A stretch of 64,000 bases of DNA from a bacterium (GCA_030697645.1 JAUYPI010000003.1:318-64317), one strand, 5' to 3'. Shown: positions 18,845-35,478, counted from the stretch's first letter. Made by a program: numbers and translations. The notes: a model not told the origin generated them from the sequence alone.

Positions 18845-19014
18845 TTGTTTACGAGATATTAGGTTTTAGGTTATAGGCCGCTAGGTTCTACGCTCCCTTA
18901 TAGGCTCTCGTTTTATCGTCAAAACCTAACACCTATAACCTAGCATCTAGTTAATAACTGCTAACAAGGTCGGCGAACGCTTGCTGCTTACTGCATACTG
19001 CTTGTTGCACGTTT

Positions 19015-19788: not shown

Positions 19789-21939
19789 TTACTTCGGCCA
19801 TCGTTCTACGAGCAGCAATTTCTCCTCGCCTTCGCGCCTCGGTATGATCTGCCAAATCGCCTCGGTGAGAAAGGGCATGAATGGGTGGAGGAGGATGAGG
19901 ACTCGGCGCAGGAGGGAGTCGAGGAGTAGCGCCGCCACACGCGCATCCTTCGCGTCCTCTCCCCTCAGGCGCGGCTTCGCCTCCTCTATAATTTTATCAG
20001 CAAACGTGTGCCAGACGTAGTGGTAGAGCTTCTCCGCGGCGACGTGAAGTCGAAAGTGTTCCATGTCGTCGGTAACCTCGCGCGAGAGCTCGTCAAGCTC
20101 GCCGAGGAGTTTGTTGTCGCCCTCGTCTGTATCTTGTATTTTGTATCTTGTATTTTGTATCGTTCCTTCGGCGTTCTCAACAACAAACCGCGCGATGTTC
20201 CAGAGCTTGTTTGAGAAATGCTTGTACCCCTTTATCTTATCCTCGGCAAGCGCGAGCGAAGTGCCTGGAGTGTTACCAACAATGAGTCCCATGCGGAGCG
20301 CGTCGGTACCATATTTTTCGGTGATGGTGAGGGGATCAATGACGTTGCCTTTCGATTTGCTCATTTTTTTCCCATGCGCGTCAAGGACGAGCCCATGGAG
20401 ATAAACGGTGCGAAACGGGACCTGGCCCGTCACATAGAGCGAGAGCATGGTCATGCGCGACACCCAAAAAAAGATAATTTCTCCCGCAGTTTCAAGCACA
20501 TCGGTGGGGAAGAAGGTTTTGAAATCGCTTGAGTCCGGGTAGCCGAGCGCCGCGAACGGCCACTGGCCTGAAGAGAACCAGGTGTCGAACGTATCGGGGT
20601 CTTTTCGTACTGCTCCGCCGCAGCGTGGACACACCCCGATGTTTCCTTCGAGATCAACGAAGCCATCCTCGCAGTGCTCGCAGAGCATAGCGGGGATCGG
20701 GATGCCCCAGACGATTTGCCGTGAGATATTCCAATCAATGATGTTCTCGAGCCAGTGGAGTACTATCTTTTTATAGTAGTCGGGAATGAAGACAACTTCG
20801 CCGCTTTCGATCGCCGTTCTCGCGCGCGCGGCGAGCGGTTGCATGCGTATGAACCACTGCGGTTTTATCTGCGGCTCAATCGGCGTGTCGCATTTGTAGC
20901 AGACACGCACCGTGTGCTTATAGCTCTCGTCGACATGGTCGAGCAGCCCTTTTTGTTTTAGTTTCTCAACGATGAGCGGCCGCGCCTTTTTGATGTGCAT
21001 GCCAGCGAATTCTCCGGCGATGGGAAGCAGCTTTCCGCCCCAATCGATGACTTGCTCCTTATCGAGCCCGTGCCGCTCGGCGATCTCAAAGTCGACGGCG
21101 TCGTGCCAGGGAGTGATGGTCATGACGCCAGTGCCGAAATCTCGGTCAATAGCAGTGTCCTTGATAACAGTCGCCCTGACCGGTCCATTGATCCACTCGA
21201 GCTCCAGAGTCTCGCCATCTCGGTAATTCCGGTAGCGTTCATCATCCGGGTGCATAACCACATATTTGTCGCCGAACTTCGTTTCCGGCCGCGCGGTGCC
21301 GATCGTAAACGGCCCGTATTTGAGATAGTAAAATGCATCGGTGCGCTCTTCGTCCTTGATTTCAAGGTCGGAGAAGGACGTTTGGTGCTTCGGGCACCAG
21401 CTTACGATCCGCTTGCCGCGGTAGAGGAGCTTGTCGTCGGCGAGCCTTTTGAATGTCTGGTAGACGGTGCGCACGACATCCTCGTCCAAGGTGAATTTCT
21501 CGCGGGACCAGTCGCATGAGGCGCCGAGACGGCGTACTTGGCCGTTGATGTTCGCGCGGTTGGCTTGGGTGAACTCCATGATTTCATCATAGAGTTTCTG
21601 CGGCGGCATATCGAAGCGGGAGCGTCCTTCTTTTTCGAGTTTTTTTTCGTACACCACCTGCGTTTCAAATCCCGCGTGGTCATTGCCCGGGAGCCAGAGC
21701 GCGCGCTTGCCACGCATACGCTCGTAGCGCACGAGAATGTCCTCGATCGTCATGACGAGTGCATGGCCCGCATGGAGATTACCGTTCGCGTTCGTCGGCG
21801 GCATGATGAGCGTAAACGCCGTATCGCGCCCGCCCGGGAGTTTGTCCGGGTTAAAGAAACCGCTCTCCTCCCACCTCCGGTAGAGTGCCGCCTCCCACTC
21901 GCGGTGATCGTATGGCTTTTTAAGCCGCTCGTCTGCCAT
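19789..21939 (-). CDS. valS: valine--tRNA ligase
   Basis: HIGH (HAGH) and KMSKS class I signatures. GNDHAGFETQ is ValRS-specific. ATG at 21939 (MADERLKKPYD...); the track's TTG start at 21975 was rejected. Confidence 0.9.
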   Translation of the reverse strand: MADERLKKPYDHREWEAALYRRWEESGFFNPDKLPGGRDTAFTLIMPPTNANGNLHAGHALVMTIEDILVRYERMRGKRALWLPGNDHAGFETQVVYEKKLEKEGRSRFDMPPQKLYDEIMEFTQANRANINGQVRRLGASCDWSREKFTLDEDVVRTVYQTFKRLADDKLLYRGKRIVSWCPKHQTSFSDLEIKDEERTDAFYYLKYGPFTIGTARPETKFGDKYVVMHPDDERYRNYRDGETLELEWINGPVRATVIKDTAIDRDFGTGVMTITPWHDAVDFEIAERHGLDKEQVIDWGGKLLPIAGEFAGMHIKKARPLIVEKLKQKGLLDHVDESYKHTVRVCYKCDTPIEPQIKPQWFIRMQPLAARARTAIESGEVVFIPDYYKKIVLHWLENIIDWNISRQIVWGIPIPAMLCEHCEDGFVDLEGNIGVCPRCGGAVRKDPDTFDTWFSSGQWPFAALGYPDSSDFKTFFPTDVLETAGEIIFFWVSRMTMLSLYVTGQVPFRTVYLHGLVLDAHGKKMSKSKGNVIDPLTITEKYGTDALRMGLIVGNTPGTSLALAEDKIKGYKHFSNKLWNIARFVVENAEGTIQNTRYKIQDTDEGDNKLLGELDELSREVTDDMEHFRLHVAAEKLYHYVWHTFADKIIEEAKPRLRGEDAKDARVAALLLDSLLRRVLILLHPFMPFLTEAIWQIIPRREGEEKLLLVERWPK

Positions 21940-22329
21940 AGGCATTATCATACAAAGATCGCCCGTACGCCGCAACGGATCGGATCGGCTTTGCGTACCA
22001 TGCTCGCGCGGCGATCCTATTACACAGTACTACACGGTAATGACGCCGTGAGGGCCTTTTTGTGTTGCATTTGCAATAACACTGCGATCGCTTTGTTATT
22101 GCAAATGTACGATTACGATAAAGATTACGGTTCAACAACTGGATTGCTTCCCGCCATGCTTTGCTCTGCACTGTCTGATGTAGGGCTTCGCTCGCGGCTT
22201 CGGCCAAATCGCTCGCAATGCATTAAATGACGGGCGTGAGTGATTACCGTGTGCCGTTTGAAGTTTGACAAGACGCCTTTCTTTGCTAGGATGAATGTTG
22301 AGCTCGTCCACGGGCGGGCTTGTTTTAGT

Positions 22330-22674
22330 ATGTCACGGTCGCTGAAGAAAGGTCCCTATGTGGACGCGAAGCTCCTGAAGAAAATCTCCGGCAAGAAGCC
22401 GGAGGACTTCAAGCAGCCCGTCCGCACCTGGGCGCGCCGGAGCCAAATCAGCCCCGAGATGGTCGGGTTCACGTTTGGCGTGCATAATGGACGAGAGCAT
22501 ATACCAGTATTCGTGAGCGAGGAGATGGTGGGGCAGCGGCTCGGCGAATTTTCGTTGACGCGCAAGTTCGTGCGACACGGCGGCAAGATGCAGAAGGAGA
22601 TCGAGACCAAAAAGAAAGAAGCCGAGCTCGCCGCGGCAAAAGCGGCGAAAGAGCCGGCGGGAGTGAAGAAGTAG
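22330..22674 (+). CDS. rpsS: 30S ribosomal protein S19 (with Lys/Ala-rich C-terminal tail)
   Basis: [12 protein letters not shown]...[11 protein letters not shown]. Confidence 0.9.
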
Positions 22675-22689
22675 TGTTTATTTTAGGGA

Positions 22690-22784
22690 TTAGTAACTCG
22701 TCACTAGTAACTAGGGACTTCTTCTGTATCGGTTCTCGTCGCTCGTTTCTAGTTACCAGTTACTGATTACCAGTCCCTCGTTTT
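22690..22784. repeat. palindromic element, family D (TAGTAACTAG / CTAGTTACCAGTTAC arms)
   Basis: Related copies at 25150-25262 and 27225-27313. Arm motifs also occur at 37355-37400 and 43795-43830. Confidence 0.7.
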
Positions 22785-23108
22785 ATGAGAGCCACCCTCA
22801 AAACCTATCGTCAGTCGCCGCGTAAAGTGCGACTTGTTGCTGATACAATCCGAGGCAAGCGGGTCAGCGAGGCGCTCACCGTGCTCTCGTTTCTTGAGAA
22901 GCGCGCGGCGGCGCCGATCAGAAAATTGCTTGAGTCCGCGGTTGCGAATGCGCGGCAGAATTTCGGCGCTGATCCCGACGGGCTTGCCGTCCGCGAGATC
23001 ACCGTGAACAAGGGCGCGGTTCTCAAACGCTCGATGCCTCGCGCGCGCGGCAGGGCGACGCCGATTCGTAAGAGAACCTCGCATATAAGTATTACTTTGG
23101 GCGAATGA
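22785..23108 (+). CDS. rplV: 50S ribosomal protein L22
   Basis: Sequence similarity and operon position. Confidence 0.9.
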   Translation: MRATLKTYRQSPRKVRLVADTIRGKRVSEALTVLSFLEKRAAAPIRKLLESAVANARQNFGADPDGLAVREITVNKGAVLKRSMPRARGRATPIRKRTSHISITLGE

Positions 23109-23134
23109 TTTTTAAGTTTGCAGGGTTAGGTTAT

Positions 23135-23265
23135 AGAGTCGAATTTTCAATGTACAATTTTCAATTTTCAATCAATTTTGCAATGACTCAATTTTCAAAC
23201 ACGTCGACGTTTATCCGTCGCTCGTCGTCGAAACATTGAAAATTGATAATTGAAAATTTCAACGT
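23135..23265. repeat. palindromic element, family A
   Basis: Ends 1 bp before the rpsC ATG. Confidence 0.75.
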
Positions 23266-23928
23266 ATGTCTCACACCGTCCACCCCTACGCCCACCGCCT
23301 CGGCATCATTCGCGACTGGAAGTCGCGCTGGTGGGCGTTGGGTGAACAATACAAAACGCGTCTCCGGGGCGACGTGTTGCTTCGCGAGTATCTTGAGAAG
23401 CGCCTGCGCGGGCTCTATGTGAGTACGATTGAGATGGAGCGCGGCGCGCACATGCTCCGCATCATCGTGAAAACGACGCGCCCGGGGCTCCTCATCGGCC
23501 GCAGTGGCGAGGGCGCGACGCGCCTTCGCGGCGACATCGTGAATTTCCTCAAGAAGCGCCGCGGTCTCCTTGAGAGCGCGGGAGACATCAAACTCGACAT
23601 TGAGGAGGTGCGCTCGCCGGAGTCGAACGCGAAAATCGTCGGCTACATGGTTGTGGACGGCCTCGAGAAGCGCATGCCGTTTCGCCGTGTGCTCAAACAA
23701 ATCGTGGAGAAAGTGATGGCGAATCGGGATGTACTTGGCGTGCGCATAAAGCTCTCCGGCAGGCTCGGGGGTGCCGATATGGCACGGCAGGAGGACGTGC
23801 GTAAGGGTAGGATTCCGCTTCAGACGTTTCGCTCAGACATAGATTTCGCTCGGCTTCGAGCTACGATTCCGCAGGGCGATATCGGTGTGAAGGTGTGGAT
23901 CTATAAAGGAGAGGTGTTTCAGAAGTAA
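23266..23928 (+). CDS. rpsC: 30S ribosomal protein S3
   Basis: KH plus S3-C domains. Confidence 0.9.
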   Translation: MSHTVHPYAHRLGIIRDWKSRWWALGEQYKTRLRGDVLLREYLEKRLRGLYVSTIEMERGAHMLRIIVKTTRPGLLIGRSGEGATRLRGDIVNFLKKRRGLLESAGDIKLDIEEVRSPESNAKIVGYMVVDGLEKRMPFRRVLKQIVEKVMANRDVLGVRIKLSGRLGGADMARQEDVRKGRIPLQTFRSDIDFARLRATIPQGDIGVKVWIYKGEVFQK

Positions 23929-23957
23929 AGTAAAGGACGTGAAGATGGTGATGAAAG

Positions 23958-24096
23958 AATTTTCAATTTACAATTTTCAATTTTCAATCAATTTTGCAAT
24001 GAATCAATTTTCAAACACGACGTCGTTCGTCATTGAGTCATTGAAACATTGAAAATTTATTGAAAATTGAAAATTGGGACTTGAAAATTTTCGACT
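23958..24096. repeat. palindromic element, family A
   Basis: Abuts the rplP ATG. Confidence 0.75.
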
Positions 24097-24513
24097 ATGT
24101 TGTTTCCCAAAAAAGTAAAACATCGTAAGTGGCAGAAACACCGGCGTAATCTCTCGAAGGTTGGCGTCGCCTCGCGTGGCACGACGGTCGCATTCGGGTC
24201 GTGGGGCTTGCGCGCGACGAGTTACGGCAGGATCCGTTCGACGCAAATCGAGGCGGCGCGTCGCGTGCTCTCGCGGGGCGTTGCGAAGTCCGGCCGGGTG
24301 TGGATCCGGATATTTCCGGACCGTCCGTATACTGCGAAGCCCCCGGAAGTAGGCATGGGCAAGGGAAAGGGCGACCCGCAGGGCTTTGAAGTCGAGGTGC
24401 TGCCCGGACGGATACTCTTTGAGATAGATGGCCTTGCGCGCGAGGCGGCGCTTGATACGCTTCGTAAGGCCGCGAGCAAGATGCCAGTGAAGACACGGGC
24501 AGTGAGTGCGTAG
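24097..24513 (+). CDS. rplP: 50S ribosomal protein L16
   Basis: Sequence similarity. Confidence 0.9.
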   Translation: MLFPKKVKHRKWQKHRRNLSKVGVASRGTTVAFGSWGLRATSYGRIRSTQIEAARRVLSRGVAKSGRVWIRIFPDRPYTAKPPEVGMGKGKGDPQGFEVEVLPGRILFEIDGLAREAALDTLRKAASKMPVKTRAVSA

Positions 24514-24524
24514 TCCTTTACTTT

Positions 24525-24734
24525 ATGAAAAAAGCGACGTATAAAGATATATCCGATGTCGATCTCGCCAAGGCTCTTCGCGAGAAACGCGAGACGCTTC
24601 GCGCATTTCGTTTTGCCTCCTCGGGTGCCAAGGTGAAGAATGTGCACGAGGGACGGAATGTGAGGAGAGATGTGGCGAGGATATTGACGGAGTTGGAGCG
24701 CCGTTCCACTAGTGGGGTGCGTGGGGCAGCGTAA
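24525..24734 (+). CDS. rpmC: 50S ribosomal protein L29
   Basis: Sequence similarity and position. Confidence 0.85.
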   Translation: MKKATYKDISDVDLAKALREKRETLRAFRFASSGAKVKNVHEGRNVRRDVARILTELERRSTSGVRGAA

Positions 24735-24736
24735 TT

Positions 24737-24890
24737 TCCAATTTTCAATTTTACAATTTTCAATCAATTTTGCAATTACTCAATTTTCAAACACGACATC
24801 GTTCGTCATTGACTCATTGGAGCATTGAAAATTTATTGAAAATTGGAAATTGGAAATTGAAAATTTTTAGCGGCGATTACTTTTAGAGAT
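24737..24890. repeat. palindromic element, family A
   Basis: Lies between rpmC and rpsQ. Confidence 0.75.
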
Positions 24891-25148
24891 ATGGTAACTT
24901 CTAATATAAAGTCCCATGTTAGAGGCGGCAGGGTGCTACGCGGTACCGTTGTCTCCGACAAAATGCGCGACACCGTCGCGGTTGTGGTGACGCGCTACGT
25001 GAAGCACCCGCGCGTCGGCAAGTATGTGCGCTGTCGGAAAAAGTATCTCGCGCATGATGCAGGCAACACGCATCACACGGGAGATACTGTCACCATACGG
25101 GAGACCAGGCCCCTGTCTAAACGAAAATCTTTTATCGTTGCCCCGTAG
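24891..25148 (+). CDS. rpsQ: 30S ribosomal protein S17
   Basis: Sequence similarity. Confidence 0.9.
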   Translation: MVTSNIKSHVRGGRVLRGTVVSDKMRDTVAVVVTRYVKHPRVGKYVRCRKKYLAHDAGNTHHTGDTVTIRETRPLSKRKSFIVAP

Positions 25149-25149
25149 G

Positions 25150-25262
25150 GACTCGTAATCAGTAACTCGTAACTAGCAGCCGGCAATTTGGCGTGACTGT
25201 AACAATAGCAAGAGGCGATGTCGCCCCTAGTTACCAGTTACTAGTTACGAGTCCCCACTTAC
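25150..25262. repeat. palindromic element, family D
   Basis: Abuts the rplN ATG. Confidence 0.7.
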
Positions 25263-25634
25263 ATGATCCAGCCCCAAACCATCGTCACTATAGCGGACAA
25301 TTCCGGCGGCAAGATCGGACGCATCTTCAAGGTGCCCGGCGGATCGCGCCGCAGGTACGCGCGTCTCGGGGACGTGGTCATTCTCTCGGTGCAGGTCGCG
25401 GAGCCGCGAAAGACTGTGAAGAAGAAAGACATCTGCCACGCGGTCGTCGTGCGGCAGCGGCAGCCCTTTCGCCGGAAGGATGGTTCGTACGTGCGTTTTG
25501 ATGACAACGCCGTGGTGCTCATTGAGAAGGGCAAGCTCGAGCCGCGCGCGAATCGCATCTTCGGCCCGATGCCGCGGGAGCTTGCGGAGAGGGGATACCA
25601 GAAAATAATATCTCTTGCCCCCGAGGTGGTATAG
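25263..25634 (+). CDS. rplN: 50S ribosomal protein L14
   Basis: Sequence similarity. Confidence 0.9.
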   Translation: MIQPQTIVTIADNSGGKIGRIFKVPGGSRRRYARLGDVVILSVQVAEPRKTVKKKDICHAVVVRQRQPFRRKDGSYVRFDDNAVVLIEKGKLEPRANRIFGPMPRELAERGYQKIISLAPEVV

Positions 25635-25637
25635 TTT

Positions 25638-25791
25638 GGGAATTTTCAATTTACAATTTTCAATCAATTTTGCAATGGCTCAATTTTCAAACACGACATA
25701 GTCCGTCATTGAGTCATTGGAGCATTGAAAATTATTTGAAAATTGCAAAATTGAAAATTGAAAATTTTTAGCGGCGTGGGAACCCATCGTC
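25638..25791. repeat. palindromic element, family A
   Basis: Abuts the rplX ATG. Confidence 0.75.
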
Positions 25792-26100
25792 ATGAAACTG
25801 CATCGTGGTGACAATGTCATAATTATTTCCGGCAAAGACCGTGGTCGCACCGGCACGGTAACGCGCGCGCTTCCTGCGAGCGAGCAGGTGATTATTGACG
25901 GCCTCAATATGCGGAAGCGTCACCGCCGTCCGCGTCGCGCGAATGAGAAAGGGCAGATTGTCGATCTTGCGCACCCGATTCATATCTCGAACGTGATGCT
26001 TGTTGACCCGAAGACAGGGAAGCCTACGCGGGTGGGGTACAGGATGGAGGGAGGAAAGAAAATAAGGTTCGCCAAAAAAAGTGGAGCCGCACTCATCTGA
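25792..26100 (+). CDS. rplX: 50S ribosomal protein L24
   Basis: KOW domain. Confidence 0.9.
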   Translation: MKLHRGDNVIIISGKDRGRTGTVTRALPASEQVIIDGLNMRKRHRRPRRANEKGQIVDLAHPIHISNVMLVDPKTGKPTRVGYRMEGGKKIRFAKKSGAALI

Positions 26101-26129
26101 ATAAGCGTAAAGCGCAAAGCGAAAAGCGC

Positions 26130-26290
26130 AAAAAAAAACAGTAAAAAATTTCAAGCTCCAACCAACAAGCTCCAAACAAATTTCAAATTCCAATGCATCA
26201 AATCTCAAACACGCACGTCGTGTTTGGAAATTGGATTTTGAATATTGAGATTTGTTTGGAGACGGGTTTTTTTGGAATTTGGAAATTAGT
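26130..26290. repeat. palindromic element, family B
   Basis: Produces the spurious MHQISNTHVVFGNWIL peptide in ORF 26193..26384. Confidence 0.7.
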
Positions 26291-26296
26291 GAACGT

Positions 26297-26827
26297 ATGG
26301 TTACCGAAAAATTACAAAGCGCTTTCGGCGCTCTCAAAGACCGTTTTGGCTATACCAACATATGGCAGGCTCCTCGCCTTGTGAAGATTGTCGTCTCGGT
26401 CGGCGCGGGCCGCGTGAGCAAAGACGAGAAGCGGCTCGCGCTGATTGCAGACCGGCTCGCGAAGATCACGGGGCAGAAGGCGGCACCCCGCGCCGCAAAG
26501 AAAGCGATCGCTTCGTTCAAGTCGCGGCAGGGGGACATCGTGGGTTACCAGGTGACGCTCCGCGGTCGACGGGCGCGCGATTTCCTCACGCGGCTTATCT
26601 CGATTGCCCTGCCGCGCACGCGTGACTTCCGCGGTGTTGCGCGCAGTTCTGTTGACGAGATGGGCAACTGCACCGTCGGCATTTCGGAGCACATTATCTT
26701 CCCCGAGAGCGCGGACGAGGAGTCGCGCGACATCTTCGGCTTTGCGGCGACGATTGTTACCACAGCCCATACGCGAGACGAGGCGCTCGCTTTCCTTGAG
26801 CACCTCGGCATGCCGTTTACAAAGTGA
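26297..26827 (+). CDS. rplE: 50S ribosomal protein L5
   Basis: Starts MVTEKLQSAF. The ORF-track start at 26252 lies inside the repeat and was rejected. Confidence 0.9.
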   Translation: MVTEKLQSAFGALKDRFGYTNIWQAPRLVKIVVSVGAGRVSKDEKRLALIADRLAKITGQKAAPRAAKKAIASFKSRQGDIVGYQVTLRGRRARDFLTRLISIALPRTRDFRGVARSSVDEMGNCTVGISEHIIFPESADEESRDIFGFAATIVTTAHTRDEALAFLEHLGMPFTK

Positions 26828-27029
26828 CTCGTGTTCGACTATAGTTTTCGGAGAAGTGAATGGTTTTTTGCTTCGTTTGCAATCGATCGCGCGTCCCTGC
26901 GGTTCCGACCGTTCGGGGCGCTGTCTTTTTTTTGGCGTGACGATGCGCGTTTGACTTCAGCGCGGAGTTTCGCTACTATAAAGCCCGAGCCCACTGAGCT
27001 GCGGGCTTCTTCATTGCTTTTGGAAAGGT

Positions 27030-27215
27030 ATGGCGAAGACATCGGTCATTGCACGGGCTTTGAAGCCCCCCAAATTCCGCTCGCGGGTCGTGCGGCGGTG
27101 TTTTCGGTGTGGCAGGAAGCGCGGCTATATGAGTGACTTCGATCTCTGCCGCATCTGCTTCCGTGAGCTCGCGAATGAAGGGATGATACCGGGCATTAGA
27201 AAGTCGAGCTGGTGA
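27030..27215 (+). CDS. rpsZ: 30S ribosomal protein S14, type Z (zinc-binding)
   Basis: CxxC...CxxC, 61 aa. Confidence 0.9.
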   Translation: MAKTSVIARALKPPKFRSRVVRRCFRCGRKRGYMSDFDLCRICFRELANEGMIPGIRKSSW

Positions 27216-27224
27216 TTTTTTTAA

Positions 27225-27313
27225 CGAGGGGTTAGTAATCAGTAACTGGTAACTGGGGACGGGATGGCGTCGCGTCCTAGTGACTAGTTACCAGTGACTA
27301 GTCCCCAGTAACC
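27225..27313. repeat. palindromic element, family D
   Basis: Abuts the rpsH ATG. Confidence 0.7.
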
Positions 27314-27700
27314 ATGGATCCTATCGCCGACATGTTGATACGTTTCAAAAACGCGGGGAGCGCGCGGAAGCCCTCGGTTTTTGTGCCGTATTCAAAGATG
27401 AAGTTCTCGATCGCGACGCTCCTTGCGCGCGAGGGTTTTCTTGGCGGCGTGACGCGTCGCACGCGCCGCGGCAAAAAAATGCTCGAGTGCATGCTGCGCT
27501 CTGGGGAGGGAAACTCCGGGATCCGCGGCGTGCGACGCCTCTCGAAGCTCTCGCGGCGAGTCTACCTCGGCGCTGACGGCATTCGCCGCGTGCGGCAGGG
27601 TTTCGGGCGGCTAGTACTCTCGACCCCAAAAGGCATCATGACCGGCGAGGAAGCGCGGAAAGAGCATGTGGGAGGGGAGGCGCTGTTCACCATTTGGTAA
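27314..27700 (+). CDS. rpsH: 30S ribosomal protein S8
   Basis: Sequence similarity. Confidence 0.9.
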   Translation: MDPIADMLIRFKNAGSARKPSVFVPYSKMKFSIATLLAREGFLGGVTRRTRRGKKMLECMLRSGEGNSGIRGVRRLSKLSRRVYLGADGIRRVRQGFGRLVLSTPKGIMTGEEARKEHVGGEALFTIW

Positions 27701-27734
27701 AACATTTATGGAGTAAAGTAACCGCTTTTTTTGA

Positions 27735-27871
27735 GAAGCTAAAATTTTCAATTTTCAATGTTTCAATGACGCAATGACGAGTGGCGGACGAATGTCGACG
27801 TGTTTGAAAATTGATTCATTGCAAAATTGATTGAAAATTGGAAATTGTAAATTGAAAATTCAGACTATACT
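27735..27871. repeat. palindromic element, family A (opposite orientation)
   Basis: Ends TATACT ATG, so the rplF mRNA is possibly leaderless. Confidence 0.75.
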
Positions 27872-28408
27872 ATGTCTCGTTACGGCAAACAACCTATCAC
27901 GATTCCCGTGGGCGTTGACGTCACCCTCGGCGACGGCGGTGAAATTACTGTCGGCGGTGCGCACGGTACGCTCGCGCGTGTTTTTCGTTCGGAGATCGAG
28001 ATTCGTAAAGATGACAATGCGCTCCTTCTCGCGCCGAGAGCGAAGACCGAGCTCGCCCACGCGCTCTGGGGCACCTACGCGGCGCACCTGCGCAACATGA
28101 TCCAGGGCGTGCGCGAGCCGTTTGTGAAGAAGCTGGTGATAGAGGGCGTCGGCTTTCGGGCAGAGGCCGCAGGCGAGACGCTGACGCTCCAGCTCGGCTT
28201 TTCGCACCCGGTGAAAGTCGCGATACCGAAAGGGATTGCGGCAAAGGTGGAGAAGGGCACCATCACGATTACCGGCGCGGACAAGGAGCTCGTGGGGGAA
28301 TTTGCAGCGCGGGTCCGGGCGCTCAAGAAGCCGGAGCCGTACAAGGGCAAGGGGATTCGCTATGAGGGTGAGGTCGTGCGTAGGAAGCAGGGGAAGAAAT
28401 CGGTGTAA
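27872..28408 (+). CDS. rplF: 50S ribosomal protein L6
   Basis: Sequence similarity. Confidence 0.9.
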   Translation: MSRYGKQPITIPVGVDVTLGDGGEITVGGAHGTLARVFRSEIEIRKDDNALLLAPRAKTELAHALWGTYAAHLRNMIQGVREPFVKKLVIEGVGFRAEAAGETLTLQLGFSHPVKVAIPKGIAAKVEKGTITITGADKELVGEFAARVRALKKPEPYKGKGIRYEGEVVRRKQGKKSV

Positions 28409-28419
28409 CGGGTGTAACG

Positions 28420-28495
28420 AGAGGGTAGAGAGTGGAAAGTGGAGAGTAGATTGTAGTCTACTTTCTCCCTTCCACTTTCTACTTTCCAAAATAAA
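28420..28495. repeat. palindromic element, family F (AGTGGAAAGTGGAGAG / CTCCCTTCCACTTTCTAC arms)
   Basis: Lies between rplF and rplR. Confidence 0.6.
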
Positions 28496-28503
28496 ACAAA
28501 TAT

Positions 28504-28848
28504 ATGCGCCCAACAAAACAGACACAACGTATTCGTCGCCACAAACGCATCCGCGCGAAGGTACGCGGTACCTCCGTGCGTCCCCGTCTCGCCGTGTATA
28601 AGTCCAATCGCTATCTTCACGTGCAGCTTGTTGATGACCGTACGGCGAAAACGATCGTTGGCATCATGAGTCGCGGTATCGGCTCGGGGAGCAAGGTCGA
28701 GCGCTCCCGGGTGGCAGGTGAGCAGCTTGCAAAAGCCGCGCGCGCAAAAGGCATCGAGCGCGTGGTGTTTGACCGTGGTGGCTTTAGCTTCAGAGGGAGG
28801 ATTGCGGCATGCGCAGAAGGGGCGAGATCAGGAGGACTTGTATTTTAG
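28504..28848 (+). CDS. rplR: 50S ribosomal protein L18
   Basis: Sequence similarity. Confidence 0.9.
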   Translation: MRPTKQTQRIRRHKRIRAKVRGTSVRPRLAVYKSNRYLHVQLVDDRTAKTIVGIMSRGIGSGSKVERSRVAGEQLAKAARAKGIERVVFDRGGFSFRGRIAACAEGARSGGLVF

Positions 28849-28957
28849 CTTTTAGTTGTTAGCTTATAGCTTTTAGAAGCTTCGAACGACTACGTCGCAA
28901 CGCGCGTGTACCGCAGTATCTCTAAAAGCTAACAGCTATAAGCTAAAAGCTAGAAAT
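28843..28957. repeat. palindromic element, family C (TTTTAGCTTTTAGC / GCTAAAAGCTA arms, core CGAACGACTACGTCGCAACGCG)
   Basis: Related copies at 58443-58540. Partial at 40597-40640. Arm motifs at 43337-43370 and 44070-44100. Confidence 0.7.
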
Positions 28958-28959
28958 TT

Positions 28960-29601
28960 ATGCCAGATCAAAGACCACAAGGACAAAGAGGAGGAGCGCG
29001 CGGGGCGAGACCGCCACGCGGGCAAGGAGGCGCTCGTCCTGAGCGCGCGCGCCCTCAGCGCGGCGGGCGCGCTGGTGGCCCGCGCGGCGGCGCAGAGCGC
29101 CGCCCGCGCCGCGGCGGGCCCGAAACATCAGACCGTTCACGTCAGTACAAGCCGGAGTTCGATCAAAAGATTCTCGACATCCGCCGTGTCGCGCGCGTTG
29201 TTTCCGGTGGGCGCCGATTTTCTTTCAGCGTGACGATTGTCGTCGGGAATCGCGCCGGCTCGGTCGGCGTCGGCCTCGGCAAGGCTGGGGACACGCCGCT
29301 TGCGATCGAGAAGGCAACGCGCGATGCCCGTAGAAATCTTATCGTCATCCCGCTCACCGAGAGCAAGTCGATCCCTCACGACACCGCAGCGAAGTATGGC
29401 GCGAGCATTGTGGAGTTCACGCCCGTCCGCGGACGCGGCCTCGTCGCGGGGAGCTCGGTGAGGAGCGTGCTTGAGCTCGCGGGCATCACCGACGTGTCCG
29501 CGAAAATTCATTCACGGAGTAAAAATAAGTTGAACAATGCGCGGGCGGCGGTGAAGGCGCTTGAGCAGTTTGTGTCGCATTCGACAAAAATCAAGGCATA
29601 A
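28960..29601 (+). CDS. rpsE: 30S ribosomal protein S5 with ~60-aa Arg/Gly-rich N-terminal extension
   Basis: S5 dsRBD plus C-terminal domain. ATG lies 2 bp after the repeat element. Confidence 0.9.
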   Translation: MPDQRPQGQRGGARGARPPRGQGGARPERARPQRGGRAGGPRGGAERRPRRGGPETSDRSRQYKPEFDQKILDIRRVARVVSGGRRFSFSVTIVVGNRAGSVGVGLGKAGDTPLAIEKATRDARRNLIVIPLTESKSIPHDTAAKYGASIVEFTPVRGRGLVAGSSVRSVLELAGITDVSAKIHSRSKNKLNNARAAVKALEQFVSHSTKIKA

Positions 29602-29784
29602 AGCGAATTGGGAACCCACAAGCTCCAAACCAAATAAATTCCAAGCTCCAACCAACAAGTTCCAAACAAACTTCAAATTCCAATGCATCAAATCTCAAAC
29701 ACGCACGTCGTGTTTGGAAATTGGATTTTGAGCATTGAGATTTGTTTGGAGACGGGTTTTTTGGAAATTGGAAATTCGTATCGT
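29600..29784. repeat. palindromic element, family B
   Basis: Explains the spurious N-terminus of ORF 29683..30240. Confidence 0.7.
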
Positions 29785-30240: not shown

Positions 30241-30260
30241 AAAATCAAAAATTAAAAATC

Positions 30261-30296
30261 ACGAACCGCGCAGCTTGCTGCGCGGTTCGTGATTGC
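30261..30296 (+). terminator. rho-independent terminator after rplO
   Basis: CACGAACCGCGCAGC-TTGC-TGCGCGGTTCGTG hairpin. Confidence 0.6.
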
Positions 30297-30491
30297 GGTC
30301 TTCTGGTGAGATACCGGGTCCCGGTCTTCACCTGATGGAATATGCAGATTTGCACGGGCAACCCCTGAAAAACCCTTGCTAATCCGCGTCTTCCGTCGAC
30401 TACCGCCACAACGATTGTCCATCCTTGTCCCTCGAGAATTTTCTAACTCGTATACGCCGAACGCGGGGAAGTTTGTCAACAGTAGGCGAGT

Positions 30492-30520
30492 TTGACAGGG
30501 GACGAAAGGGTGTATATAGT
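30492..30520 (+). promoter_or_regulatory. sigma70-like rRNA promoter TTGACA-17-TATAGT
   Basis: Consensus hexamers about 340 bp upstream of the 23S 5' end. Confidence 0.45.
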
Positions 30521-31014
30521 GATTTTACGTATGAGTAGATTGACTAAACTACACAAAAAGCGGAGGAGCTGACACTCGTCTTTGGTAGACTGTGTTCGTC
30601 CCATCCGCTCAAGGTGAGCGGTTTTTGTTTTGTCCGAACGATTGGACGATTGATTCTTTGTCAACAAAATAGGCCCCACGGCAAGAACGCATGGAGCGTT
30701 TTTAATTTCGATATTTTGAAATTTTGATATATCGAGGTGCCGGTGGCGGGCTAAAGCAAAAAGAATCAAATTAAGCAGGTAAAACCGTGCTTCGCACGGA
30801 CATTTCGAAATATCGATATATCGAAATTTCCGCGCGGAGCGCGGTAGCGGTTTTTCCGTTCCTCACAGGAATGGAAGCGCATATGGTGGATGCCTAGACT
30901 CCACATGGCGATGAAGGACGCGGCCTGGCGGCGATACGCTTCGGGGAGGTGCCTGGTAACCTTTGATCCGAAGATTTCCGAATGGGGAAACCCCTTTGCA
31001 TAAAACGCATTGAT

Positions 31015-31391
31015 CTGCCTGTATGTTTTGACTTTTGATTTTTGACAAAAAACCGACTGTCTGACACCTGACGTCAGAGCAGTCGGCCGCTTCGAACTCG
31101 CCCTCGATCCTTAACTTACATAGAGGATGAGGGAGAATGCGAGTAGTAAAAGCAATGCTGCGAGCATATACCAATATTTGTTGTTTTTATTGAGCTCGCG
31201 ATTTGCAGCCCCCAGCGCTTGCGCGGGCACTTCCTGCTCTTCCGTTCTGAGTAAGGAATGGGGATGCCTGTTATTGTGCATGGCATTGCTCCTAATCTAA
31301 GGTAAGAACTTTAAACTCACCCCGTGAGCTTACGTCACGAATATTTTATACTATAAGTATATTTTTGTCAAGAGTCAAAACATACAGGCAG
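31015..31391 (+). other. IVS-like insertion 1 in 23S (helix-9 region), AT-rich
   Basis: 18-bp terminal inverted repeats CTGCCTGTATGTTTTGAC / GTCAAAACATACAGGCAG. Shares internal TTGTCAAGAGTC with insertion 2. Carries ~57-codon ORFs on both strands; the antisense one ends in a hydrophobic helix. Confidence 0.6.
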
Positions 31392-31812
31392 AGGCATACC
31401 CAGGGAAGTGAAACATCTCAGTACCTGGAGGAAAAGAAAACAACCGTGCTTCGCACGGACATTTCGAAATATCGATATATCGAAATTTCCGCGCGGAGCG
31501 CGGCCATTCCCTTAGTAGCGGCGAGCGAAACGGGAGGAGCCTAAACCGTGCGCAGCACGGACATATCGATATTTCGAAATTTCGATATTTCCGCGCTGCG
31601 CGCGGTGTTGTACGGCAACGGCGTAGTTTAACTAGAGAAGTTACAAAGTGGTTTGTTAGCGGAATCTGCTGGAAAGCAGAGCCCCAGCGGGTAATAGCCC
31701 CGTACGCGAAAGCACGCCACCTTCTTTGCTGTTGTTCGTGAGTACCTCGGGACATGAATAGCCCGAGGGAATCTGGCAGGACTAACTGCCAAGGCTACAT
31801 ACGTGTGGAGAT

Positions 31813-31849
<37 letters not shown>

Positions 31850-32109
31850 CAGCCCGGTGAGGGCGGTGAAATAGACCTGAAACCATATGCGTACAAGGAG
31901 TCGGAGCTGCCGCACCTCATTGCATTCGGTGCGGACATTTCGATATTTCGAAATATCGATATATCGAAATGTCCACCGCGCCGAGTGTAGCGAGGTGCGG
32001 CGGTCACGGCGTGCCTATTGAAGAATGAGCCAACGAGTTGTCGTTTGTTGCCCGTCTAACCGCTTGTCGCGGGAAGGCATAGGGAAACCGAGTGTTAAAA
32101 GCGCGATCG

Positions 32110-32503
32110 CCTGCTCATATTTTTGGATTTTTATTAGTGGAAGTTAACTGAAACCGCCACGTTCATGTTAAACGTAGCGGTTTATCCCTGAGTCCAAGGA
32201 AGAGCGTCTTCCTCACCTTGTGAGGAAGAACCAGATTTTATCTGGAATGAGCTTTTGAAGGAAAGAGCCTGGAACAAGGAAATAAGCAAGTGCAATACAG
32301 ATCAAAAGCGGCCAATATATCCACCTTGGGACGAAATACCCGAGAAGATAGAAAACACCAGCAACGATACCAATAATGATATGACCTTTAAGGTTCATTT
32401 TCGTCTCCAATCTCGAATGAGGTGCCAGGGGGATGGGGGGTTCTCTATACAACAAATTAGTATAAATGTATTAATTTGTCAAGAGTCCAAAAATATGAGC
32501 AGG
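32110..32503 (+). other. IVS-like insertion 2 in 23S (helix-45 region, ~E. coli 1170), AT-rich
   Basis: Terminal inverted repeats CCTGCTCATATTTTTGGA / TCCAAAAATATGAGCAGG. Internal TTGTCAAGAGTC. Antisense ORF 32213..32455 encodes a small protein with two TM helices. Confidence 0.6.
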
Positions 32504-33784
32504 TACAGCAGCAAACGCCAGACCCGAAGCCGGGTGAGCTTGCCATGGGCAGGGTGAAGGCGATGGAAACATCGCTGGAGGCCCGAACCGGTCAGCCGTG
32601 CAAAACTGTCGGATGACCTGTGGCAAGGAGTGAAAAGCTAATCGAACTCGGTAATAGCTGGTTCTCTCCGAAATAGCTTTAGGGCTAGCGTTCTGTGTTC
32701 CTTCCGGGGGTAGAGCACTGGATGGAAAGAATAGGGAGCAATCTCGTCTTTCCAATCAAACTCCGAATACCGGAAGCACGCCGCACCTCATTGCATTCGG
32801 TGCGGACATATCGATATTTCGAAATTTCGATATGTCCGCCGCGCCGAGTGTAGCGAGGTGCGGCGGATAGCAGGGCAGTTAGACTATGGGGGCTAAGCTC
32901 CATTGGTCAAAAAGGGAAGAGCCTTTGATCTCCAGTTAAGGTCCCTAATACGGCGCTCAGTGCATCTTAAGGAAGTAGAGACCCACAGACAGTGAGGAGG
33001 TTGGCTTAGAAGCAGCCATCCTTTAAAGAAAGCGTAACAGCTCACTCATCGAGGGTTTCTGCGCCGCAGATTCACGGGGCTTAAGCGCCGAACCGAAACT
33101 GAGGATGCCGTGCGCAGCACGGACATATCGATATTTCGAAATTTCGATATTTCCGCGCTGCGCGCGGTGTGGTAGGAGAGCATCCTGCACCCGCAATGAA
33201 GCACGGGCGTGAGCTCCGTGTGGAGCGTGCAGGAGTGAGAATGTTGGCACAAGTAACCGCAATGCGGGTGAAAGCCCCGCACGCCGAAAGCCCAAGGTTT
33301 CCTTGGCGATGACAATCAGCCAAGGGTTAGTCGGGCCTTAGCCGATGGCGAAAGCCGGAGGTGATGGACACACGGTTAATATTCCGTGACCCGGATCCAT
33401 TTCGATGTGGTGACGGAGGAGATAAGCGGGGGCGCATTATTGGATTTGCGTCGCCCGTGCGAAGACGCGCCGCCTAGGTAAATCCGGACGGCACGCCGCC
33501 GCACCTCATTGCATTCGGTGCGGACATTTCGATATGTCGATATTTCGAAATGTCCGCCGCACCGAGTGTAGCGAGGTGCGGCGGTACCGTCGAGCGCGGT
33601 AGAAATTCCGGGGTTCGCCCCGGGAAATCCTCGCGAAGAGCCTTCCAAGAAAAACCACTAAGGCTAGGTGGATTCGGTCCGTACCGCAAACCGACACAGG
33701 TGGGCAGGTCGAGAAGACCAAGGCGAACGGGTGAGTGTTCCCCAAGGAACTCGGCAAAAAAGCAGCCGTAACTTCGGGATAAGG

Positions 33785-34330
33785 CTTGCCTTGTCGGGGC
33801 TGAAAGAAGGAAAATTTTGTTCTTTAAGGAGACGATCAATGGATAGCATAGGTGGGAGGCTGAATTATTGGAGCGGCGAAAAATCCAATAGAAATACCAG
33901 CCGTCAGTGGAATACCACCCTTGATCGTTTTCGTCCGGAAATTCGCTTAAAAACCGAGTTTCCGGTTGAGTTCAGTGGAGCAAATCGGGCGTTTAGTCGA
34001 GTGCTTCCATGCCGTGTAAAATAGCGCTTGTCTGATTTGCTCCGCCAGTCCAATGGAGCGGTCAGGCCGGAGAGTTCTCCTGCAATACGTGGGTGACCCA
34101 TGAGAGGTTGCTACGTTCCCTTGCAAGGTTCTGTAAAAATCTCCCGCCCTGCCGAGTGGTTGAAGTCCACGCCGCTCCAACCCGACCAATGGGGTAGATC
34201 ATGGATACTTTCTGGGATATTGGGAGTGATAACCTCCGAACCCAATTTCCGGAGTAGCAAGTATGCATGGTCTACTCCTTCAATCAATCGGGGGATGTCT
34301 CTGATATCCCCTCCTTCTTTCAGCTCCGAT
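33785..34330 (+). other. ~545-bp insertion in 23S domain IV (between CTTGTCGGGGCTGAAAGAAGG and CCTTCTTTCAGCTCC) containing a divergent copy of a domain-V segment
   Basis: GGATAGCATAGGTGGGAGGCT...GCCGTCAGTGGAATACCACCCTT duplicates the canonical block at 34990-35060. Confidence 0.45.
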
Positions 34331-34589
34331 GAGGCCGCAGCGAAAGTACCCCTGCCGACTGTTTACCAAAAACACAGCTCCCTGCGAACTCGCAAGAGAA
34401 TGTATAGGGGGTGATGCCTGACCAATGCCGGAAGGTCAAACAGTGGTGGTGACCGCATCACACGGCGTGTGATGCGGACATATCGATATTTCGAAATTTC
34501 GATATGTCCGCATCGCGCTTCGCGCGATGCGGTTGCTGGCCGCTGTAAGCCCCGGTGAATGTCGGCCATAACTATAATGGTCCTAAGGT

Positions 34590-34818
34590 CACGGCTCTCT
34601 TGATTTTTCAAGGGAGTCGTGAGGACTGGGACTATTATAGCGGTAAACAGAAAGTGCAAGCTACCTTATCGTGCGGTAACGCACGAATTAGTCCGCACCA
34701 CGACTCACATGAGAGGCCATACGTCGTGCTCCGACACCACTTTTTGGTTTCAGTCTTAGCTGAAACCAAAAAGTGGTGTCGGGTGAAGATATGGTCCTTC
34801 GCAAGAAGGAAAGCGAAG
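34590..34818 (+). other. compact ORF-less group I intron at the L1917 site
   Basis: 5' exon ends in U (CCTAAGGT). Intron ends in G. Exon ligation restores GGT|AGCGAAATTCC. P7-3' strand like GAAGATATGGTCC followed by a P9 hairpin. Confidence 0.6.
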
Positions 34819-35478
34819 AGCGAAATTCCTTGTCCTCTAATTAGGGACGCGCACGAATGGCATAACGAGTGGGGGACTGTCTCGGGGAACAGCCCGGTGA
34901 AAATACAATCCCGGTGAAGATGCCGGGTACCTGCAGCTAGACGAAAAGACCCTAGAAGCTTTACTATAACTTGATATTGGTCGTATGTTTCCACTGCGTA
35001 GCATAGGTGGGAGGCTTTGAAGCTCTGCTCTCGGGCAGCGTGGAGCCGTCAGTGAAATACCACTCTGTGGGAGTGTACGCTCTAACCTCGACGGCAAAAA
35101 CGGCGAGGGACAGTATCTGGTGGGTAGTTTTGTTGGGGCGACATCCTGAAAGTTCTGCGAAAGGAGGCCTTTCGCAGCGTCGTCCCGGATCGTCATTTAT
35201 TCCTGACGGTTCGAAGCCGTGCGTGGCACAGAATTTCCAATTTCCAATAACCAATTTCCAATAAAATGTCCAATGTTTCAATTTCCAATGTTCAAACGTT
35301 CATGTTTGAGATTTTGAATTTGAGATTTGGAATTTGTTTGGAAATTTAACACTTGGAGCTTGGAGCTTCCGCGCCGCGCGCGGCGAAGGGGATCCCGTAT
35401 GGCAACATGCGGGCAAACATCTTGCTATTTGCTGGAACAGCCGGCGTATCTGGCACTACCATGAGAGGAGGATGATAC

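Follow-up and report, generated by a model that had tools for sequence, protein, structure and literature searches.

Heptad-armed palindromes in the spacers of a Patescibacteria ribosomal protein operon look like fast-turnover, self-folding repeats

Introduction

Tandem arrays of seven-nucleotide units, the STRR or heptanucleotide long simple sequence repeats, were reportedly described by Mazel (1990) and Mrazek (2007), and an article by Vioque (1997) is said, from its title, to deal with them as well. The Vioque article is cited in PMC2858038. Among the long simple-sequence repeats of prokaryotes, units of seven nucleotides are the most frequent, an abundance that has been ascribed to polymerase slippage, and in Beggiatoaceae, Cyanobacteria, and Bacteroidetes heptamer arrays lie just before start codons, including those of ribosomal protein (r-protein) operons with few Shine-Dalgarno (SD) sites (PMC4679880). 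Here we analyze a 64,000-nucleotide stretch of DNA from an uncultured bacterium (GCA_030697645.1 JAUYPI010000003.1:318-64317) – hereafter the window – in which palindromic elements with heptad-repeat arms occupy most spacers of the S19-L15 r-protein operon.

Rickettsia palindromic elements (RPEs) are selfish palindromes that swell the spacers of a small genome and are also tolerated in frame inside protein genes. REPINs are hairpin-forming inverted doublets, and the tagged repetitive extragenic palindromic (REP) sequences are found mostly between unidirectional or convergent open reading frames (ORFs), occasionally inside genes (PMC3116915, PMC3733652). Intervening sequences (IVSs) of 23S rRNA are sporadic hairpin inserts at the tips of helices 25 and 45 that are regarded as selfish and are removed by RNase III (PMC4990558, PMC2801512, PMC8708148). 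In Volvox organelle genomes, selfish palindromes bloat spacers, as the elements of the window do (PMC2670323).

Literature searches returned no description of such elements in Candidate Phyla Radiation (CPR) bacteria. An initial annotation of this DNA held that the elements belong to no described family, which stands for their sequences though not for their build, which is that of the STRR or long simple sequence repeat class, nor for their behavior, which is like that of REPINs, MITEs (miniature inverted-repeat transposable elements), and 23S IVSs. The elements look like self-folding repeats with fast turnover rather than conserved regulators. With such a build and such behavior, we lean towards reading them as non-autonomous, self-folding repeat elements derived from heptanucleotide microsatellites.

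Heptad hairpins fill the spacers of an r-protein operon

S3 and glycosyltransferase homologues assign the window to the Patescibacteria/Parcubacteria (CPR), in a genome of roughly 1 Mb. The window has a G+C content of 53%, and its coding DNA one of roughly 60%. On the plus strand, 22.3-30.2 kb encodes S19-L22-S3-L16-L29-S17-L14-L24-L5-S14-S8-L6-L18-S5-L15, and a 7.5-kb 23S rRNA gene, then a 5S gene, lies directly 3' of this operon; the remaining genes were assigned by Pfam. R-protein operons are among the most compact and conserved bacterial gene arrays, yet here 12 of 14 junctions have gained a hairpin of 70-160 bp, compared to 9 of 40 other spacers (Fisher p = 5e-5). The two element-free junctions are L16/L29, at 11 bp, and L5/S14, which carries a conserved promoter and leader. 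SD-like motifs precede only 4 of 35 genes. Since 12 of 14 junctions are hairpin-filled, translation of these cistrons would be independent of classical tight coupling or SD pairing.

The elements belong to several sequence families, of which A and B are oriented (plus strand unless noted) and C, D, E, F, and H carry no strand assignment. Within the operon, the S19-L22 spacer holds D1 (22685-22778), a family D element with AGTAACT heptads, and family A elements, with CAATTTT heptads, follow in the L22-S3 (A2, 23142-23258), S3-L16 (A3, 23958-24089), and L29-S17 (A4, 24733-24865) spacers, the last overlapping the L29 stop codon. D2 (25148-25256) lies between S17 and L14, its first base being the last of the S17 stop codon, and A5 (25641-25766) lies between L14 and L24, with the same 10-nt 3' flank as A4 (TTTAGCGGCG). 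B2 (26147-26287), with the AGCTCCA / TTCAAAT heptads of family B, occupies the L24-L5 spacer; just 5' of it is a one-arm remnant of AAGCG heptads (26101-26134) from a family that forms full hairpins in a sister species (L002). Further along come D3 (27228-27306) between S14 and S8, A6 (27743-27860), reversed on the minus strand, between S8 and L6, F (28421-28486; GTGGAAA heptads) between L6 and L18, C1 (28843-28955; TTTTAGC heptads) between L18 and S5, with the L18 stop codon TAG within its first heptads, and B3 (29617-29776) between S5 and L15.

Elements measure 70-160 bp, with stems of 40-55 bp. Eight representatives, including E and H from outside the operon, fold into hairpins with energies between -27 and -52 kcal/mol, and relative to dinucleotide shuffles their z-scores are -3.4 to -7.7 (A3 -7.5, B3 -5.8, C1 -6.0, D1 -3.5, D2 -7.7, E -3.7, F -6.9, and H).

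The initial annotation had described multi-copy, non-coding palindromes in several sequence families with one architecture, a description that our analysis bears out; all 22 listed copies (9 A, 5 B, 3 C, 3 D, as well as E and F) are present where it had placed them. The arm motif, put there at 9-12 bp, is instead a heptamer. Autocorrelation peaks at lag 7 or its multiple 14 in 22/22 A-F copies, with values of 0.39-0.76 at lag 7 and about 0.2-0.3 at most other lags, and a heptad-tract detector finds 51 tracts in the window versus 0-1 in shuffles. Arms in families A-F and H are tandem heptads without internal dyad symmetry.

The six families proposed, A-F, are all present, though the set changes in two ways. 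Judged from sequence, A and B are one superfamily, because both have the termini AATTTYCAA and the core CAAACACG; the inverted termini AATTTYCAA...TTGRAAATT bound elements of this type. Additional families are H (TAGGTTT heptads; 18849-18951), in the Hsp20-PrsW spacer and present in the sister species as a single arm, the AAGCG remnant, and G, with an 8-nt period, in and around the 23S gene. The core was said to contain CGACG nearly always. This proved too strong, though the motif is frequent: CGACG/CGTCG falls in the central 50 nt of 15/22 copies, from 5/7 families, compared to 16% of background 50-nt windows. These pentamers are common genome-wide, and only their local enrichment in element centers stands. 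We rejected CGACGTCG or GACGTC as a special site, the pentamers being common and GACGTC occurring 20 times where 19.8 are expected. With heptad periodicity in all families and ACGAC/GTCGT-type cores enriched, a common mechanism behind them – as the initial annotation had suggested – is plausible.

Copies within a family resemble one another beyond their heptads. Irregularities and stem mismatches recur across the nine A copies, most of whose differences are indels of 6-8 nt. In A, B (three full and two degenerate copies), and D (three copies), unique non-periodic inner sequence, cores, and mismatches are common to the family. The shared 7-nt build and the 6-8-nt indels point to slippage of the microsatellite type.

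Same-strain DNA from a second metagenome-assembled genome (MAG; L001 and L036) and from a Logan assembly (L035 and L037) overlaps the window in part. L001 is identical base for base to window 20133-24031, which includes D1, A2, and the left arm of A3, and the spacers of A1 and B1 have the same lengths in L036 as in the window. Because these assemblies agree, the elements are not an assembly artefact. The same-strain assemblies are identical where compared, with no allelic 7-bp length difference seen. More A and C copies lie just beyond the window. Contigs of other assemblies end or mis-join within elements; the elements thus fragment and mis-join CPR MAG assemblies. L001 itself (JAXMIX010000106.1, GCA_034376905.1) follows the window until mid-A3 and then, within the right arm of that element, continues with another A copy beside NusB/NUDIX-L32-MFS (5466-5522), and its other end (1-1566) departs from the window within a heptad tract of a tRNA synthetase gene. 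This divergence may be either a repeat-mediated mis-join or a real rearrangement.

Orthologous spacers are short in relatives and differently occupied in a sister species

The initial annotation had raised the question of whether orthologous spacers are empty in relatives. Across most of the operon, spacers are 1-40 bp in five of them (L005, the P0004 contig, L032, L033, and L034). In L005, whose S3 is 89% identical, spacers of 2, 2, 10, 23, 7, and 16 bp correspond to window spacers of 110-168 bp (11 bp for L16-L29), most operon spacers are 1-23 bp, and 10 kb contain one heptad tract. The other four (S3 69-77% identical) have a compact, canonical S19...L15-SecY-adk-map arrangement with 0-1 heptad tracts.

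The S14 promoter (TTGACT-N17-TACTAT) and leader hairpin, at 26947-27020 in the window and 9876-9949 in L005, are 84% conserved and probably serve the spc operon as an internal promoter or an autoregulatory leader. Unlike this functional non-coding sequence, the heptad hairpins are not conserved in L005. L005 has a G+C-rich repeat of its own (GGATTGCTTCGTCGCTTCACTGCGGTTTCGCTCCTCGCAAAGACGAC) in the L2-S19 (5618-5720) and S17-L14 (8105-8160) spacers, and a direct heptad array (CCAACTT; 8169-8200) abuts its L14 start codon.

Contigs L002, L003, and L004 come from a sister species (S3 98% identical, coding DNA 87-89%). The S10, r-protein, and ATP-synthase operons of L002 have large spacers with other heptad families (AAAGTCA..., AAAGCGA...), and BLAST of L002 spacers against window spacers gave no match. 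Two heptad families are common to the two species, each being a complete hairpin in one species and a lone arm in the other. The breaks in the operon fall at different junctions in the two species; in L002, foreign genes stand between L2 and S19, and NDK and ATP synthase genes follow L16.

A conventional MITE-like palindrome of ~160 bp, with ends TAGACTTCTTCGGAAATTCC and center GCGACGTCGTC, occurs at 55459-55615 and also at 57624-57665 of the window and at 1-166, 9324-9480, and 16465-16600 of L002, and is 84-95% conserved between the species. The L003 and L004 contigs end within this element.

Family A recurs in unrelated genomes

The 20-base A core CAATNNNTCAATTTTCAAACACG occurs at 4 loci from 3 GTDB genomes and at 20 metagenomic loci, with a G+C content of 33-55% and none from the window's species. 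All of these copies are intergenic, their flanking genes are diverse, and most of the complete ones start with AATTTTCAAT and end with ATTGAAAATT. Comparison of the flanks of about 30 A copies for di- to deca-nucleotide repeats showed no target-site duplication or conserved target motif, although an AATT duplication hidden within the A termini would escape it. Between co-directional genes, 5 metagenomic copies are sense and 7 antisense. Heptad number varies, with six AATTTTC units in L030. BLAST of the elements against plasmid and phage collections gave no match, though the low-complexity filter may mask weak ones, and pattern scans of viral contigs gave zero matches.

Some of these copies are again in r-protein operons. 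In the Liptonbacteria-like L015 (S3 40% identical to the window's), A elements lie in the L23-L2 and L22-S3 spacers and another palindrome family in the L3-L4 and S19-L22 spacers; in its relative L038, most spacers of the same operon contain yet other periodic palindromes. Invasion of the r-protein operon is thus seen in at least three CPR genomes from two distant lineages, and family A is usable as a marker of horizontal exchange within the CPR. Two A-like elements of L008, clamped by CCGGTGCAAGCACCGG / CCGGCGCTTGCGCCGG, stand in place of the tips of 23S helices 25 and 63.

G+C-rich double hairpins centered on GGATCC (e.g., CCGCCGGGATCCCGGTCGC) are nested in the A copies of L013, L017, L022, L025, and L028 and in heptad hairpins of L038 (3290-3320 and 7495-7525). 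They recur in several CPR genomes unrelated to one another and may form a further mobile module of smaller size.

These comparisons bear on a purely local origin, in which heptamers would slip in place and then be inverted by fold-back or template switching at a small CG-rich inverted repeat, with no mobility. Single non-palindromic arrays (40597, 54847, and 26101 in the window; 8169 in L005) could be precursors, the many motif alphabets with one architecture and the 7-nt units of the indels would follow naturally, and slippage is the published account of heptamer abundance. The nine A, three full and two degenerate B, and three D copies nevertheless share the non-heptad features described above, and the same A core and termini in unrelated genomes require copying of whole units, making an exclusively in-situ origin very unlikely. 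The favored reading takes the elements to be copied units with fast turnover, since families share inner sequence, sharp termini, and free orientation, are absent in close relatives, differ in occupancy between sister species, and include one, A, that is found in unrelated genomes.

Elements occupy varied contexts without a 5'-end preference

Outside the operon, elements lie in a wider range of contexts. A1 (8433-8556) is between the RNase J and SBP5 genes, both on the minus strand, antisense to transcription, and B1 (6184-6331; reversed, minus strand) is in the convergent spacer of orf400 and RNase J. A7 (38379-38524), in the 23S-5S spacer, is an A/B hybrid whose left arm is AATTTCC and right arm GAAAATT. 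E (41428-41510; ATTGACC heptads) occupies the orf254-FtsW spacer, A8 (42746-42877), which has the single compensatory G-C change, the convergent FtsW/GT4 spacer, and A9 (51463-51606) the folD-PAP2 spacer. B5 (57975-58100) is a degenerate B-like copy upstream of a small L33-like ORF, and C3 (58445-58524) lies between tRNA-Trp and tRNA-Thr. Two further arrays are single and direct: C2 (40597-40632), of C type, ends 7 nt upstream of the orf254 ATG, and a TTAGAAG-like array (54847-54880; no strand assigned) adjoins the start codon of orf154. By spacer type, elements are present in 0/5 divergent, 2/5 convergent, and 19/44 co-directional spacers.

The elements had been described as ending 0-10 bp before start codons, with a possible 5'-end target preference. 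Distances to codons, read by hand from the sequence, are 6, 7, 7, 25, 7, 25, 9, 7, 11, 17, 4, and 9 nt from element to ATG in the 12 operon spacers, i.e., 4-25 nt, and these few bases are all that lies outside the palindrome upstream of each ATG. The distances from stop codon to element are 10, 33, 29, -2, -1, 6, 46, 12, 42, 12, -6, and about 15 nt, the three negative values marking elements that overlap the upstream stop codon. In 8/12 spacers the gap on the downstream side is the smaller of the two, which is not a significant 5' bias. Stop codons are abutted as often as start codons, and convergent, tRNA-tRNA, rRNA, and ORF sites are also used; A8 and B1 (convergent), C3 (between two tRNA genes), and A7 (between 23S and 5S) are not upstream of a start codon at all. 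A targeting preference for 5' ends is therefore not supported, and nearness to start codons is to be expected where a tiny spacer has been filled by a large insert. In the single spacer with readable homology, the bases directly before the ATG match between L005 (AAATTTCGAT) and the window (AAATTTTCGACT).

The 23S rRNA gene (30862-38336) is 7.5 kb long and has about 14 insertions relative to Escherichia coli. Among them are a group I intron (35306-36029), an ORF for a LAGLIDADG endonuclease (36449-37096) located at E. coli ~2474, inserts at ~1931, ~2533, and ~2594, and several hundred extra nucleotides at helix 9/10, helix 25, and 1704-1773. B4 (35231-35340), a B-like copy, is at the 5' edge of the group I intron, at E. 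coli ~2255-2263. Family G consists of palindromes with GC-clamp hairpins CCGTGCGCAGCACGG / CCGCGCTGCGCGCGG, scattered on the plus strand across 30783-38238, upstream of and within the 23S gene (copies at 30783-30845, 31444-31503, 31545-31606, 33108-33167, 34452-34533, and 38155-38238). Its sites within the gene correspond to E. coli ~235, ~270, 1163-1243, 1854-1889, and 2782-2815. Family G and B4 (~2255) thus lie in variable 23S helices, and only the rRNA-borne copies are extra hairpins at variable-helix tips in the manner of IVSs.

Heptad tracts are also translated. The minus-strand GT4 ORF has four (43342-44104): two of C type, at 43342-43378 (encoding KSYQLKA) and 44063-44104 (encoding KSYKLKA), one of D type at 43796-43836, and one at 43454-43488. 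At least the N-terminal segment is a 5-residue insertion relative to most homologues and is common to one homologue of 69% identity. Linkers of a class I aminoacyl-tRNA synthetase (20123-20165, minus strand; the tract at which the L001 contig breaks) and of SecD (CCACCCT x4; 52827-52868, plus strand, adjoining CGACGTCG at 52814) contain further translated tracts. Taken together, the sites are operon and convergent spacers, rRNA helix tips, and protein loops, and not divergent promoter spacers, as would be expected if a self-folding insert were structurally neutral.

Folding, covariation, and promoter analyses

We found no strand asymmetry in the elements, sense and antisense fold energies and G-U counts being equivalent, and A6 and A1 are reversed relative to transcription. 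Co-varying stems, which the initial annotation had considered, did not emerge from RNAalifold on window copies, from RNAalifold on cross-organism copies, or from arm duplex energies. Among the 9 window A copies, 2/41 pairs have a compensatory change and the covariation term is unfavorable. Across 20 cross-organism A copies there was no in-register consensus hairpin and there were no compensatory pairs, as the heptad register shifts. Self and chimeric arm duplex energies in 14 organisms did not differ (-30.3 vs -30.25 kcal/mol, p = 0.48), a comparison of low power in that heptads pair in any register. Rfam yielded no match at the gathering threshold, and an E-value scan only sub-threshold plant miRNA hairpins. 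Two other candidates were rejected. Intrinsic terminators do not fit, as the stem bases are A/T-rich and terminator-scan matches lie elsewhere (e.g., 30257-30294, after L15). TIGR arrays repeat a 36-nt unit, made up of edge and loop repeats together with two spacers, in tandem beside a Nop-domain Tas gene (PMC12045711), while the period here is 7 nt, the units are dispersed, and the window contains no adjacent Tas gene.

Shifting registers with a conserved motif are what arrays of DNA-level protein-binding sites would show, each heptad (8-mer in G) being the site of one dimer of a small protein that organizes transcription or the nucleoid. Ribbon-helix-helix proteins offer examples: heptads of 7 bp, arrayed directly or inverted, are bound by the omega repressor of inc18 plasmids, and 8-bp boxes in tandem by MetJ. 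The strict period of 7 (or 8) bp in the two inverted arms, the orientation independence, and the conservation of heptad motif rather than pairing register across organisms in family A are consistent with this. At least seven unrelated motif alphabets in a small genome would, however, need as many proteins, the arrays also occur in ORFs and rRNA, relatives manage without them, and no candidate protein is linked within the window; we therefore regard a binding-array role as highly improbable.

The initial annotation had also proposed promoter or leader modules, and a leaderless mRNA for rplF; as promoters, the elements would give every cistron a transcription start of its own. Right arms of family A (at 24060, 24836, 25736, and 27831) contain TTGAAA-N17/18-GAAAAT, and the GAAAAT box ends 7-8 nt upstream of the ATG of rpsC and rplP; some monocistronic genes likewise have -10-like boxes 6-8 nt before their ATG. 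TTGAAA-N17-GAAAAT matches the sigma-70 consensus TTGACA-N16-18-TATAAT at 9/12 positions, which is the best score of any element and is confined to the A arms, and sigma-70 promoters were accordingly rejected as an identity for the elements. The match arises automatically because three 7-bp units give it, it lacks the T at -10 position 1, and it is symmetric on the other strand. Families B-F and H have no comparable match, and the reversed A6 and the convergent copies do not fit. Good consensus promoters lie outside the elements, at 22265, 26816/26951, and 30492 (10-11/12 matches), and in rplF the TATACT box directly adjoins the ATG, leaving too little distance for a leaderless start. A general promoter or leaderless role is thus scarcely credible.

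A function in the transcript deserves more weight, though we still think it unlikely. Transcribed hairpins could punctuate the operon, being cut by an RNase III-like nuclease to give separately tuned monocistronic mRNAs, with the left arm left as a protective 3' stem of the upstream cistron and the A/U-rich right arm as an unstructured, SD-independent leader. Elements do lie inside transcription units, none being found in divergent promoter spacers, and their enrichment in the r-protein operon of the window is repeated in L002 (r-protein and ATP-synthase operons) and in L015 and L038 (r-protein operons). With SD-like motifs so scarce (4/35 genes), A/U-rich leaders would matter. The 40-55 bp stems suffice as RNase III substrates, excision by RNase III is the known fate of 23S IVSs (PMC4990558, PMC2801512, PMC8708148), and related hairpins are found where 23S IVSs classically sit, at helix 25 in L008 and in the helix 45 region of the window's gene. 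Against this, the five relatives manage with mostly 1-40 bp spacers, orientation is free, neither strand folds better, compensatory changes are lacking, orthologous spacers have different occupants in sister species, and convergent spacers, tRNA spacers, and ORFs contain copies too.

A more ambitious version, which we rate as quite unlikely, is punctuation of operons across the CPR, in which self-folding modules placed between the cistrons of highly expressed operons would be recognized by a dedicated nuclease or binding protein via their periodic arms or CG-rich tip, and the transcript would be divided into mRNAs that are stabilized one by one and translated without SD sites. If true, it would be a bacterial counterpart of mitochondrial tRNA punctuation or plastid intercistronic processing, and the same modules would double as excisable rRNA inserts.

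Relation to described repeat classes

The elements are most like STRR sequences in build. Both consist of tandem 7-nt units in several unrelated families per genome and are mostly intergenic, and in both cases the spacers of relatives are shorter and repeat-free. STRRs change length in 7-nt steps; here, indels of 6-8 nt between paralogous A copies and a unit number that differs between genomes may reflect the same kind of change. The tandem 7-nt arrays of the window are longer than expected by chance, as STRR arrays are (lag 7 or 14 in 22/22 copies; 51 tracts vs 0-1). Family D contains CCCCAGT and family E is close to TTGGTCA, both of which we take to be STRR motifs. STRRs are mainly direct arrays, whereas here the arms are inverted around a unique core, discrete hairpins of 70-160 bp are copied whole, and the host is a CPR bacterium.

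TAACTGA-type repeats share with the elements a position a few nucleotides before starts, in r-protein operons with few SD sites, as well as a patchy phylogenetic distribution, assembly breaks, and an unassigned function (PMC4679880). They are direct repeats of one motif in a fixed 'forward' orientation (169 direct sets vs 1 indirect), while the elements here are palindromic, orientation-free, and of many motifs. Only the single arrays at 40597-40632 and 54847-80 of the window and 8169-8200 of L005 fit the TAACTGA pattern.

REPs and REPINs resemble the elements in being inverted doublets that form ~100-nt hairpins in single-stranded DNA or mRNA, in having several families per genome and the same spacer types, and in lacking target duplication; their CGTC/GTAG tag is reminiscent of the CGWCG core and TAG-containing heptads seen here. 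REP arms are 20-40 bp imperfect palindromes with an unpaired GTAG/CGTC tag, and the arms of A-F are heptad arrays instead. The window elements are thus inverted-doublet hairpins in unidirectional and convergent spacers, but tagged palindromes are not found in the arms of A-F or H. Family G alone is REP-doublet-like, with GC-rich mini-hairpins flanking an AT-rich center. No RAYT (Y1 transposase) gene is present within the 64-kb window.

MITEs such as Correia/NEMIS, ERIC, and RUP are likewise small, non-coding, multi-copy, intergenic elements with terminal inverted repeats and both orientations, and they may be co-transcribed and carry outward promoter-like sequences (PMC3184786). The elements here are short, multi-copy, and non-coding with inverted termini, yet they show no target-site duplication, and a palindrome of tandem sub-repeats extends over their full length, where MITEs have short terminal inverted repeats around unique DNA.

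For 23S IVSs, the A-like copies of L008 (helices 25 and 63) and family G of the window occupy the same kind of variable helix. IVSs are defined by their rRNA location, whereas the same families here also lie in mRNA and tRNA spacers. RPEs and Volvox palindromes differ in having unrelated sequences, different hosts, and no reported heptad periodicity. The elements are therefore full members of none of MITEs, REPs/REPINs, TAACTGA repeats, terminators, promoters, Rfam families, or TIGR arrays. They link heptanucleotide microsatellites, REPIN/MITE-like hairpins, and rRNA intervening sequences, which are usually treated apart.

A working model and its weak points

Slippage, mobility, and tolerance through folding would together explain the architecture, periodicity, multi-copy families, lineage-specific presence, turnover, range of contexts, and absence of strand or orientation dependence that we observe. 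On the microsatellite-derived reading that we favor, arms would lengthen and shorten by 7-bp steps through replication slippage, and whole elements would be copied to new sites at the DNA level, with sharp termini and no visible target duplication. Copies would be kept only where a self-folding insert is structurally harmless, i.e., in co-directional or convergent spacers, at variable rRNA helix tips, and in protein surface loops. In spacers, the base of the stem would reunite the upstream stop codon with the downstream start codon and hide ~100 nt of naked RNA, and elements would come to lie at start codons by filling ancestrally tiny spacers. The rule suggested is that, to survive in operon spacers, at rRNA helix tips, or in protein loops, an insert must fold on itself.

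Several observations weigh against this reading. The window has no transposase, the only recombinase being a large serine recombinase in a low-GC island, and no cognate insertion sequence with the same ends was found in the window or the fetched loci. No target-site duplication was seen in the flanks and no empty/filled pair with exact boundaries among the loci compared, so that transposition is inferred. Enrichment in the operon (12/14 vs 9/40) exceeds what tolerance anywhere in non-coding DNA would give, and the same operon is hairpin-filled in the distant, Liptonbacteria-like L015 and L038; a function or biased targeting could lie behind both. Within the window, A copies favor one orientation 8:1 and B copies 4:1, which the model does not account for. 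The replication origin was rejected as a cause, as most of the window has positive GC skew and the sign does not change at 22 kb. To carry at least seven heptad families without mutual relationship, a genome of roughly 1 Mb would need either sequence-independent copying or many partners, and the occurrence of a CGWCG-type core in different families hints that some specific recognition, outside this account, takes place. These gaps leave room for a function in RNA processing or protein binding.

Other features of the window

Truncation and re-joining have altered the r-protein operon. Upstream of S19 (21976-22330) is a divergent tRNA synthetase gene, not L2, and L15 is followed (30241-30861) not by SecY-adk-map but by a strong hairpin and, at 30492-30520, a consensus promoter ahead of the 23S gene. 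No 16S gene lies upstream of the 23S gene within the window.

The large serine recombinase gene (1369-~2900) is in a low-GC island (33-45%) at 1-3100, between tRNA-Phe and tRNA-Leu, which is probably an integrated element. Two proteins have low-complexity N-terminal extensions: RNase J, with an Arg/Pro/Gly-rich extension of ~100 residues (8080-8376, minus strand), and S5, with an Arg/Gly-rich extension of ~65 residues (28960-29160). The folD (50640-50665), GT4 (44187-44205), and RNase J (8377-8400) genes have a TATAGT, TATAAA, or TATAAT box ~20 nt or less from the start codon, at 6-8 nt for folD and GT4, and no SD motif. These features suggest that mRNAs of this organism are leaderless or have very short leaders.

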